Source: a virus (taxonomy: Duplodnaviria; Caudoviricetes). Taken from it: a DNA stretch of 64,000 bases. A program made the translations under genes and the position numbers. A model generated the notes under the pieces. It did no database searches. It was given only the letters and a program-made list of their open reading frames with translations, and was not told the origin of the DNA. This document shows, piece by piece, positions 57,545 to 60,752 of the stretch. Within the stretch, counting starts at the first letter, position 1. Each line of letters opens with the position of its first letter. Where the stretch lies: the IMG/VR virus record IMGVR_UViG_3300037424_000485, positions 64,001 through 128,000 of that record. One strand, written 5' to 3'.

Positions 57545-57603
57545 AATGTTTTATCTCATTGATGATATTTAATAACTCTTCATTAGGATTATTTAACAGC
57601 TTG

Positions 57604-57924
57604 TTAAACACCGTATTTAGCCTTGAGCTTTTCCAACTGACAAAGCTCTTGATTCTCAATAAATTTTCGGTGGTTATCTTCGTTATTCAGCCGTGCGGCT
57701 TCCTCGGCATCGGTTTCCAACCGCTTATAGCTTATTTTCACCTCAAACTGACTGCCATCGTAATAGGTTGACGTACTGCAATCTATATTTATGGTCGCCT
57801 TGTACTCATCAGGCACAAGGGCAAATTTATCAGACCACCATTTCAAAAACTCTTCCGGGCTACTCGGCAGGTCATAGGCACAAGACTCGGCTTCAAAAAC
57901 AATAACTTTAATTTCCTTTTTCAT
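57604..57924 (-). CDS. cassette-borne hypothetical protein
   Basis: 106 aa, GGAGG RBS, GC content above background. Confidence 0.75.
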   Translation of the reverse strand: MKKEIKVIVFEAESCAYDLPSSPEEFLKWWSDKFALVPDEYKATINIDCSTSTYYDGSQFEVKISYKRLETDAEEAARLNNEDNHRKFIENQELCQLEKLKAKYGV

Positions 57925-57973
57925 AACTTCCTCCGTACATATGTGTTTATCCAGACATCAACTGAGCTTGGTG
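57604..57973 (+). mobile_element. 370-bp integron-type gene cassette with eroded attC (site F)
   Basis: Insert flanked by GTTA at both ends within the pol duplicate; starts G|TTAAAC (GTTRRRY) and ends CTGAGC-TTGGT-G|TT. Confidence 0.7.
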
Positions 57974-58163
57974 TTAGCATATCTCTGACCATTAAGAATG
58001 GTATGTCTACACATGATGTTATAGCCTCTGCCATAATACCATAAAATTTTCTAATAATCAATAACTTTATATAAATAATATTATATAAAAACAAACCCAC
58101 TAACCGTTGGTAGCGGATAATGGGTTCTAATCATAACATTTACTTATAAGGAAGTAAACAAAT

Positions 58164-58895
58164 ATGACTATATTTATTTATACACAAAAAACCAAGAAAT
58201 GTATTCAATGTAAAGAAATAAAATCTATAGATAATTTTAACAAAAGAATGACTGGAAAATATAGAGGTCAGTGTAGAATTTGTCAAAATAAAGCGAATAG
58301 AGATAGATATCACAATCACAGTAAAAACACATTGAAAAAATCCTCATTAGACTACTATAATAACAATAAAAAACATTACATGGCGGTACATAAAATATAT
58401 AGGACATCACTTGCATCATATGAAACATATGCACATCAGCTAACAGTAGAAGAAGATCCAATATTATCTGATGATGGTGTTTCTCTTGAGGTTAGATGTA
58501 AATATTGCGGTAAATATTTTAAGCCTACTAATAAAGAGGTATCATGTAGAGTTAGTGTAATAAAAGGACTATCAATAGGTGAATTAAGTCTTTATTGTTC
58601 TGATAATTGTAAAAAATCATGTGGGACATATAGACAAAGAAAAAATCCAAAAGGTTTTAAAATATGTACATCGAGAGAAGTACAGCCAGAACTTAGGAAA
58701 TTGGTTCTTGAAAGAGATAATTATCAATGTCAGTCATGTGATAATATTGATATCAAGCCATTACACTGTCATCACTACGAAGGTATTGAGATCAACCCTA
58801 TTGAAAGTGCTGATATTGATAATTGTATTACATTATGTAAAAAATGTCACAATGCTGTTCATAAGCATTGTGACATGAGAAGAAAAAAATGTTAA
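58164..58895 (+). CDS. HNH homing endonuclease (subtype B), antisense to polB
   Basis: QLTVEEDPILSDDGVSLEVRCKYCG plus the family HNH module; stop abuts the polB stop. Confidence 0.85.
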   Translation: MTIFIYTQKTKKCIQCKEIKSIDNFNKRMTGKYRGQCRICQNKANRDRYHNHSKNTLKKSSLDYYNNNKKHYMAVHKIYRTSLASYETYAHQLTVEEDPILSDDGVSLEVRCKYCGKYFKPTNKEVSCRVSVIKGLSIGELSLYCSDNCKKSCGTYRQRKNPKGFKICTSREVQPELRKLVLERDNYQCQSCDNIDIKPLHCHHYEGIEINPIESADIDNCITLCKKCHNAVHKHCDMRRKKC

Positions 58896-60752
58896 TTATT
58901 TATCATATATCTTAATCTCATTGATGATATTTAATAACTCTTCATTAGGATTATTTAACAGCTTGTTAGCATATCTCTGACCATCAAGAATGGTATGCCT
59001 ACCACATGATGTTATAGCCTCTGCCATGTTAATATTAAAATATCTACTATATGGTACTGCCATAATACCATAGATAGAGTTAATGAGAATCTTAAAAGCC
59101 CATTGTAGATCATATTTTTGTTTTGCTTTATCTAATATTTTCTTCTTAGATTTCCCATCTTTTATAGATAACGATTTTTCGTAAAGAAGTGACATTTTGT
59201 TCTTCTCTTCTTTACGCTTAATAAATACCATTTTCTCTATTGTAGGTATAACACCTCTTTTCCCATTTTTAAACATACTACCACATGGTGCTATAGATAA
59301 CAATTTCTTTTCTATAGATTTATTAAATATATCTAATTTTTGACCATCGATATATTGAACCATCCCATCTTTTAATAAATAAAAAGGTGGAAATTTTTTA
59401 TTCCTTGCATGATCAACTACTATATCATAAAATGGCCTAGTTTCATCGTCTTTATTATGAATCCCTATACCAGCATTATAATCTACTACATGGTTTTCAT
59501 TAAAACCAATAATTCTACCATAATATGTTTCATTTGATATATTTAATATAATAATATGACTTGGGTATGAGCTTGTTATATCAAGATCCACTACCCAAGG
59601 ATGCAGTCCTTTATATGGTTCTTTAACAAAAGCGGCTGGAAACCATTCTTTATCTCCCCCCATCAATCTAGGAGCTGCTAGATTATTTCTACGATAGTAT
59701 ACTAACATAAGACCTTCAACAAGACCAACAGTTGTGTTATACATATCCATAGGGACACGACAAAGAAGTGTGAGTGATTGTATTAACGATAAATAACCGC
59801 ACTTCTTCTCTATATTTTGTATTAGAAGAGCATCGTTTATGTTATATTCACAATACAGCTGCCAATTTTTCATATACAACTCTTGTAGTGTGCCGTATTC
59901 TCCATAGTCTATCTTACCACCAAGATTTTCTACTTCAGCAACATGGTCTAGTTTATTACTTTCAAGGTTGTTTGTGGTATACCATCTATAAACACTCATA
60001 TAATCGAGTAGTGTTACACCAGCAATATTAATATGCTGAACCCCAACTCTATCAACATAAGAATTTACATTATTAATGGGCGATAACTTCTTATAAAGCT
60101 TGGTATCATCCCCAAATAATACTTTGGTGCGATTTATGATATAAGGGAGATCGAAACCCCCTCTGACTTTTGCTTTTCTATCATCACAATAAAACCATCC
60201 GGTTACAACATCACACATATTTGTGTGTTTCCAGTTAAAATATTGTGTCAGTAGGTCATATTCATCTTTACAGTGATGATAAGTGAGATTTTCTATACCT
60301 TTGTCATTAACAAAAGGATGCAGTCCAAATGATTGGATGCCTCTGTTATGAGCTATGGTAATAATTGTGATAGGCCATTTAGCCTCGTCTGGTTTTGGAA
60401 ACTCGTCAGCACTATGAACTTCTATATCTTCAAAATGAATGACAAGATGCGGCACTTCCATATCATCATCAGATATACCGCTATATCTTTCAGATAAAAA
60501 TTGGATAACAGGGTTAACTTCGTTCTCATAACATTGTTTATTTTTATCTATAAAAGACTTATATTGGGCGTAATTACTAAATGATTTCCTTCCTACTGAA
60601 ACTCCATCAATAGTTTTAACATCTTCATCTTCATAGTGTTTTAAAAAAACAAAAGGTGAAAAATCTATACAATCATAGAATCTTTCACCTTTTATCGACT
60701 CCCATAAATGGAGTCTTGACTGTCTGGTATCATAATGTGCATTTGTAAACAT
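58896..60752 (-). CDS. family B DNA polymerase N-terminal subunit (exonuclease, motif A, motif B)
   Basis: FEDIEV exo I, FDLPYI exo II, YNINDA exo III, DLDITSSYPS motif A, KILINSIYG motif B; no DTDS. Confidence 0.9.
   Translation of the reverse strand: MFTNAHYDTRQSRLHLWESIKGERFYDCIDFSPFVFLKHYEDEDVKTIDGVSVGRKSFSNYAQYKSFIDKNKQCYENEVNPVIQFLSERYSGISDDDMEVPHLVIHFEDIEVHSADEFPKPDEAKWPITIITIAHNRGIQSFGLHPFVNDKGIENLTYHHCKDEYDLLTQYFNWKHTNMCDVVTGWFYCDDRKAKVRGGFDLPYIINRTKVLFGDDTKLYKKLSPINNVNSYVDRVGVQHINIAGVTLLDYMSVYRWYTTNNLESNKLDHVAEVENLGGKIDYGEYGTLQELYMKNWQLYCEYNINDALLIQNIEKKCGYLSLIQSLTLLCRVPMDMYNTTVGLVEGLMLVYYRRNNLAAPRLMGGDKEWFPAAFVKEPYKGLHPWVVDLDITSSYPSHIIILNISNETYYGRIIGFNENHVVDYNAGIGIHNKDDETRPFYDIVVDHARNKKFPPFYLLKDGMVQYIDGQKLDIFNKSIEKKLLSIAPCGSMFKNGKRGVIPTIEKMVFIKRKEEKNKMSLLYEKSLSIKDGKSKKKILDKAKQKYDLQWAFKILINSIYGIMAVPYSRYFNINMAEAITSCGRHTILDGQRYANKLLNNPNEELLNIINEIKIYDK

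Follow-up and report, generated by a model that had tools for sequence, protein, structure and literature searches.

A displaced polB gene end beside an antisense HNH gene in a T4-like phage, the probable scar of a homing-endonuclease event

The principle that a homing endonuclease can displace the end of a gene is already known in yeast and in fungal mitochondria. In the WHO elements of Torulaspora and Lachancea yeasts, each homing replaces the 3' end of FBA1 and leaves the old end behind as a fragment, the start of which marks the cut site (Coughlan et al. 2020, PMC7282813). The mORFs of fungal mitochondria make gene hybrids, in atp6 of Allomyces and in atp6, atp9, cox2 and nad3 of Glomus (PMC3630166). 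In phage T4 the free-standing endonucleases SegF, SegG and MobE often cut away from their own genes, with co-conversion of the flanking DNA, and where a single side is homologous the other side can be joined illegitimately, a process known as one-sided illegitimate homing (reviewed in PMC2988022). As cited in that review, the Aeromonas phages 25 and 44RR have a split gene 43 (43A/43B) with the seg43(25) endonuclease gene in the gap. Here we describe a duplicated gene end at the split family-B DNA polymerase locus (polB) of an uncultured T4-like phage, where an antisense HNH homing-endonuclease gene lies between the two copies. The sequence analysed, referred to below as the window, comprises 64,000 nucleotides (nt), bases 64001-128000 of the 204,431-bp record IMGVR_UViG_3300037424_000485, and positions follow window numbering unless another is named.

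The gene for the N-terminal polymerase subunit, polB-N (58896-60752, minus strand), encodes 618 amino acids (aa) with the exonuclease domain and motifs A and B (Pfam DNA_pol_B, 1.6e-14; DNA_pol_B_exo1, 1.1e-7). Its last ~160 nt (copy A, 59072-58912, minus strand) are found a second time, as copy B (58043-57972 and 57606-57550), on the far side of the antisense HNH gene. Comparison of the two HNH flanks with each other gave 54 of 54 identical nt between 57553-57606 and 58915-58968 (E 1e-26) and 61 of 64 between 57972-58034 and 58964-59027 (E 4e-23), which confirms a repeat far above chance. The same kind of search over the flanks of all 18 HNH copies in the genome found a DNA-level duplicate only at polB. 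The layout, with copy A, the HNH gene and copy B in succession, is directly seen, and so is the decay of B. We consider it reasonably probable, if well short of certain, that this layout is the scar of a homing-endonuclease event, in which a gene end together with its HNH gene was copied into polB-N and the original end was pushed downstream.

The two copies were mapped base by base. Copy B begins at the YG of motif B; the motif (KILINSIYG) is conserved in 25 relatives. A 59072->59057 and B 58043->58028 share 16 identical nt, TATGGTATTATGGCAG, containing the YGIMA codons. The next 36 nt are absent from B, and in A these sit between two ATGGCAG repeats. A 59020->59004 then equals B 58027->58011 at 17 of 17 positions, the G at A 59003 is absent from B and its loss leads to a frameshift, and A 59002->58969 corresponds to B 58010->57977 at 32 of 34 positions. 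One of the differences in this block is a GAT-to-AAT change in B, which turns the D of TILDGQ into N, although all relatives have D or E there. Copy B is then broken by an insertion of 370 nt (57971->57602, counting a repeated TAACA), beyond which A 58968->58912 matches B 57606->57550 at 56 of 57 positions. In total, 121 of the 124 aligned nt are identical (97.6%). The original prediction for this DNA had proposed a gene-end duplicate at polB with its junction at the YG of motif B. The duplicate is real and begins at that point; its start lies at 59072 in A and 58043 in B, not at 59071. A continuous, near-complete duplicate was not found, as B is a dead fragment with three indels and its identity to A is high only in the aligned bases. 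Copy A (58912-59072, minus strand), which runs from the YG of motif B to EIK, is the working 3' end of polB-N, and its residues agree with the conserved sequence in relatives. Copy B consists of part 1 (57972-58043, minus strand), which carries the 36-nt and 1-nt deletions and the D-to-N change, and part 2 (57550-57606, minus strand), the block of 56 identities in 57.

The two copies part at their tails. On the minus strand polB-N ends with ..KILINSIYGIMAVPYSRYFNINMAEAITSCGRHTILDGQRYANKLLNNPNEELLNIINEIKIYDK and a stop codon. Identity between A and B, 54 of 54 up to GAGAT, collapses over the last 16 nt of A (58896-58911, minus strand), where A closes as EIKIYDK with its stop at 58896. The tail of B diverges, as had been predicted: it reads EIKHYESVKQV and stop (native tail 57522-57549, minus strand), ends at 57522 and overlaps the ATG of the next operon gene at 57544, so that B is contiguous with the downstream operon. 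That B is the displaced original end of polB-N, as the prediction also held, is supported by this junction with the downstream operon, by the decay of B and by the link between the tail of A and HNH described below. The defects of B (the deletion, the frameshift, the D-to-N change and the foreign insertion) must be later than the displacement, because each of them would have broken a working polB. The opposite polarity, in which A is native and B came with HNH from a donor, would be compatible with the A/B identity taken by itself. However, B would then have to sit upstream of the donor's HNH promoter, detached from the polymerase body, whereas it is in fact continuous with a downstream gene that itself has no detectable homologue, and it is the tail of A, not that of B, that is linked to the HNH flank. 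We therefore regard this polarity as very improbable.

The HNH gene between the copies is a free-standing homing-endonuclease gene of 243 aa (58164-58895, plus strand), antisense to the polB operon, with matches to PHROG HNH families down to 2.4e-10 and a Pfam HNH match of 0.0029, below the cut-off. Its open reading frame (ORF) is full length compared with its paralogues and the H-N-H motif is intact, with the residues HCHH..N..CHNAVH visible. The gene lies outside any intron or intein and has its own expression signals, and its stop codon abuts that of polB-N. The leader of 120 nt (58044-58163, plus strand; fold z = -4.1) starts with ~22 nt for which no match was found in the genome or in related loci. 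It continues with a late promoter of the T4 type (TATAAATA at 58070-58077), then a stem-loop at 58094-58126 and, at 58139-58157, a hairpin that covers the ribosome-binding site. Two further antisense HNH copies in the window have the same leader, as do a third elsewhere in the genome and the HNH gene of L001, one of the related loci described below. In total, the 204-kb genome contains 18 HNH paralogues, those in the window being at 3039, 5833, 7716, 14228, 19482, 21209, 42323 and 58164. At least four antisense copies have the late-promoter leader, while co-oriented copies are without it.

Right after the polB-N stop, on the minus strand, the 3' coding sequence of HNH (the CHNAVHKHC codons) yields a terminator-like 13-bp hairpin followed by a T-run (58844-58876), and the same palindrome is present in the HNH copy at genome position 53905 (53905-53960). 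In both copies compared, the hairpin and T-run fall just past the point where the facing host gene stops. Over its final 53 coding nt, HNH is identical to the copy at genome 53905 at 52 positions, and the ~20 nt past the stop also look similar. Read on the other strand, the nt past the HNH stop encode the last codons and the stop of the facing gene, IYDK at polB and IIYE at genome 53905. Judging from these two copies only, the last 16 nt of A are probably borne by the HNH cassette, and the antisense HNH seems to provide the gene that it truncates with a terminator.

We then turn to the relatives of the locus, namely 82 related loci obtained from an alignment scan of viral contigs, the closest with 63% polB-N identity; a single-protein scan of viral contigs gave no match. 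L001 and L003, both at 63%, have the same kind of HNH gene at the same spot, convergent and with the same leader. In L001 the stops of polB-N and HNH overlap in TTAA (11851-11854 of that locus) and there is no second copy of the polB-N end, which shows that a donor form with polB-N followed by HNH, and no fragment, exists. L002, L004 and L005 (52% identity) have a 2.4-kb gap without HNH, the gene is also absent from the 45% relatives, and in distant relatives the two polymerase pieces are adjacent or fused. The presence of HNH at polB is thus sporadic among relatives, a mobility signature that is directly seen and supports a free-standing mobile gene, with HNH at the same place in a 63% relative and missing from the 52% relatives. 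The DNA that follows polB-N, that is, the content of the gap before polB-C (the gene for the C-terminal subunit), was likewise seen to differ in every relative. A duplicate of the polB-N end, with or without HNH, is present in none of the 82 related loci; a duplication without HNH would have spoken against displacement by the endonuclease. The closest relatives, P0002-P0005 (73-81% identity), could be compared in their protein tails only: P0003 ends in DYE and stop, as B-like, and P0004 and P0005 end in EYDI and stop, as A-like. As a weak stand-in for their loci, none of the top 120 HNH matches falls on a contig with the lengths of theirs. The last 62 residues of polB-N do not stand out from the rest of the protein: by hand count they are 79% identical to P0005, equal to the overall value. 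As a separate observation, the polB-adjacent HNH gene of L001 (11851-13140) encodes 429 aa, with two tandem N-terminal modules of zinc finger plus linker and one nuclease module.

Two further genes of the same genome have copies of their ends next to HNH paralogues, visible as duplicates at the protein level only. Downstream of prs lies an HNH paralogue, and directly after the HNH stop, in frame, comes a diverged 39-codon copy of the prs C-terminus (window 6667-6789; ..LPLTNFISDIILCIDNQRQFGKMFKNWSE and stop). In front of primase there is a 30-codon stub that resembles the gene's own start (MIDFNKVIDLCNQYGENVSIKSGG.., window 14139-14231), then an antisense HNH paralogue, and primase itself begins past the HNH leader (window 15080 onward, MLTEYEVSSMLSKLGVDFINTNGYFKCKCPVCGDS). 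The primase junction lies just before the CPVCGDS zinc finger, and the stops of the stub and HNH overlap in TTAA (window 14228-14231), like those of polB-N and HNH in L001. The primase case is a mirror-image, 5'-end version of the displacement at polB. Together, the prs and primase cases support a general process of gene-end displacement next to HNH paralogues. They also bear on the possibility of an assembly artefact, in which variants with and without HNH were chained in series in a metagenome-assembled genome. For an artefact speak the nature of the record, an uncultured viral contig, and the presence of repeats of 54-64 nt, which can mislead assemblers. However, the architecture at prs and primase is the same with copies too diverged to be mis-joined, B bears mutations of its own as well as an insertion, and the join of the leader to B, followed 16 nt on by B's private deletion junction, forms unique sequence that must be in the reads at usual k-mer sizes. 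An artefact is accordingly a highly unlikely origin of the layout.

The homing event that we favour would have proceeded as follows. An HNH enzyme from an HNH-bearing co-infecting genome would break a polB-N without HNH. The break would fall on the YG codons of motif B or slightly upstream of them, some 175 bp away from the site of the HNH gene. The junction fits a break at, or left of, the boundary between ATC and TATGG, and a cut by HNH at motif B is plausible on the position of this junction. The left break end would then invade the donor and copy the donor's gene end and the HNH cassette. Because the DNA downstream of polB-N is lineage-specific, the right end could not pair, and it would be joined without homology, as in one-sided homing; alternatively, it would be joined at a displaced fragment already in the donor, as by the WHO-element route. 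The product would have the order gene with copy A, HNH, and copy B with the native tail. The working gene would be closed by copy A plus the 16-nt cassette-side tail (IYDK and stop), followed by the terminator-like hairpin, and B would afterwards lose 36 nt and 1 nt and gain a foreign small gene. The position of the break, the donor and the joining on the right side are what we infer from the layout.

Several observations weigh against this course of events. A and B share the first 16 nt of the duplicate and A is not visibly recoded against cleavage, unlike the WHO, mORF, prs and primase cases, in which divergence of the working end explains resistance to the enzyme. Nor has the replacement end diverged elsewhere from the displaced end, at 121 of 124 identical nt, although the 36 nt absent from B are not comparable. 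The right-hand junction (58043/58044) has no microhomology and no homology with polB-N, and the adjoining ~22 nt match nothing. With L001 no shared co-conversion tract is apparent, as identity at third codon positions does not rise near the polB-N 3' end, and the L001 HNH gene is no closer to the polB HNH than the genome's own paralogues are. Finally, the case is a single one, with no duplicate in any related locus, and both the donor and the HNH-free sibling are genomes whose existence we infer. The misfit of near-identical copies may be accounted for in several ways: the donor and recipient may have been near-identical strains that differed only downstream, resistance may reside in the 36 nt absent from B or in the few later differences, the cut may lie elsewhere, or the duplication may have had its origin within one genome.

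An origin of the last kind would be a local duplication of the gene end plus HNH without homing, by slippage, unequal crossing-over or endonuclease-stimulated amplification, with later loss of the second HNH or with entry of HNH between existing copies. The near-identity of A and B fits a single-genome origin, the SegB endonuclease drives tandem amplification via microhomology in phage T6 (PMC13096335), and L001 shows that HNH can follow polB-N without a duplicate. Yet such a duplication needs two or more steps, no remnant of a second HNH is seen from B to the next gene, and the duplication leaves unexplained why identity stops at the cassette-side tail and why B has a different tail over the next ATG. 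We assign this explanation a low but real probability. Another alternative is a standing element of the WHO or mORF type, in which the mobile unit is a resistant gene end A plus HNH, B is the right homology arm, and homologous repair carries the unit into HNH-free siblings after a cut at the start of the duplicate. Its layout would be that of WHO elements (PMC7282813) and mORFs (PMC3630166), three such layouts occur in this one genome, and part 2 of B and the next gene still offer homology. Against it, A is undiverged from B near the proposed cut, so that resistance would be unexplained unless it lies in the absent 36 nt or the few later differences of B; moreover, B is interrupted by 370 nt of foreign DNA, and L001 has HNH without any fragment. 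We consider such an element unlikely, and displacement by a homing HNH enzyme remains our preferred explanation.

Compared with the described systems, the polB locus resembles WHO elements in having an endonuclease gene beside an essential target gene, a full-length gene with a replaced 3' end and an old end decaying past the endonuclease. The yeast nuclease, however, is an intein-like LAGLIDADG-zinc-finger protein of a eukaryote, while here an antisense HNH gene of a phage is involved; the replaced end in yeast is about 15% diverged and confers resistance, while the ends here are 97.6% identical; and here the stop codon and a terminator-like hairpin come from the cassette. The mORFs have in common with polB a C-terminal duplication and a native C-terminus stranded downstream of the endonuclease ORF, but they run in the same orientation as the host gene, often in frame with it, they encode LAGLIDADG or GIY-YIG enzymes rather than an antisense HNH, and the end that they insert is foreign, with 64-81% nt identity, in contrast to the nearly identical copies here. 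As in T4, the endonuclease gene is free-standing with its own regulation, and distal cleavage, co-conversion of flanks and one-sided repair are all T4 features; a gene-end duplicate was not found for the SegF, SegG and MobE cases in the review (PMC2988022) or in the literature searched. The split gene 43 of the Aeromonas phages, as far as it is described where cited in that review, is likewise a T4-relative family-B polymerase divided into two cistrons, and a free-standing endonuclease gene separates these. Here, by contrast, about 12 genes fill a gap of 5 kb, the polymerase is split immediately before motif C, and the locus includes a displaced fragment of the gene end.

The polymerase is split into two cistrons. 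On the Pfam profile, polB-N spans positions 13-202 and polB-C spans 266-438, which together include all motifs, and these two are the only family-B DNA polymerase genes detected in the phage. polB-C (53047 to about 53957, minus strand), which runs from motif C (DTDS) onwards, lies outside the duplication, across the gap of 5 kb with about 12 small genes. DTDS is found just upstream of the polB-C ATG. As side observations, the polB-C frame is broken by 11 nt just before DTDS: the gene begins with a good ribosome-binding site and reads MIKRNRNIGDMIDYIAYI up to a TAG (window 53881-53957, minus strand). DTDS lies 11 nt past this TAG in another frame, and without those 11 nt the frame would read AYIDTDS, like that of relatives such as L015 (MIDRIAYIDTDS); an 18-bp hairpin also terminates at the TAG stop (z -6.7). 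Among 329 metagenomic polB-N homologues, many are split forms of 580-626 aa and there are also unsplit forms of 850-925 aa. In split relatives the N piece ends a few residues from 'EIK/EIE..Y' and the C piece begins 8-12 residues before DTDS. The best tblastn match to polB-N in GenBank, among cyanophages and other T4-like phages, is only 28% identical, and a megablast search of 8.5 kb against GenBank phages found no match and no close relative.

The 370-nt insertion in B (57602-57971, minus strand) is flanked by the 5-nt TAACA repeat and has a GC content of 42%, compared with 32% in its flanks; the record as a whole is AT-rich, with a GC content of about 32%. It holds ORF106, a 106-codon gene at 57604-57924 with a GGAGG ribosome-binding site, homologues of which, at 53-74% aa identity, occur in two viral contigs; the genes adjacent to ORF106 there have no counterpart beside it in this genome. 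The GC contrast and the unrelated neighbourhoods of these homologues indicate a later, separate arrival. In L083 the ORF106-like gene (5974-6321) adjoins a gene that by its appearance is likely a large terminase, and L084 has a truncated copy (6001-6234) with 41% GC inside a 56%-GC contig; DNA identity to the two copies is ~76% over 144-241 nt. An integron cassette was considered as the source of the insertion and found no support, as neither strand shows an attC-like hairpin where the insertion ends (z +0.7 and +1.1), and only the 5-nt TAACA repeat fits. The next operon gene (57170-57544, minus strand, 124 aa), the N-terminal half of which is hydrophobic by eye, matched only itself among 5.8 billion proteins and has no homologue in the viral contigs. 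The prediction had expected relatives without HNH to join the polymerase directly to this ORF at 57544; since it has no detectable homologue, no relative can do so.

In the literature searched we found no description of such a gene-end scar in phages. The features that appear particular to this locus, on the sequence evidence, are the antisense orientation, a stop and terminator-like hairpin supplied by the cassette, near-identical repeats, the junction at motif B and the later insertion of a mobile gene into the dead copy. It is possible, though doubtful, that the antisense HNH cassettes of this lineage are a viral counterpart of WHO elements, which would enter essential replication genes at catalytic motifs (motif B of polB; before the zinc finger of primase), bring or regenerate the gene end, supply a stop and terminator, and leave the old end as a scar of the cut site. 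Near-identical direct repeats would make the polB insertion reversible, since recombination between A and B would remove 1362 bp and restore an HNH-free gene with the native tail. Displaced gene ends of this kind can be read as homing fossils that give the entry point of the nuclease, and probably its cut site, without experiment, and motif B is in this way a concrete candidate target for an uncharacterised HNH enzyme. The scar sits in the catalytic core of the phage's only detected family-B DNA polymerase genes. Altogether, the polB, prs and primase cases suggest that free-standing endonucleases reshape essential phage genes at the sub-gene level, through a mechanism that has to date been elucidated in yeast and fungal mitochondria alone.

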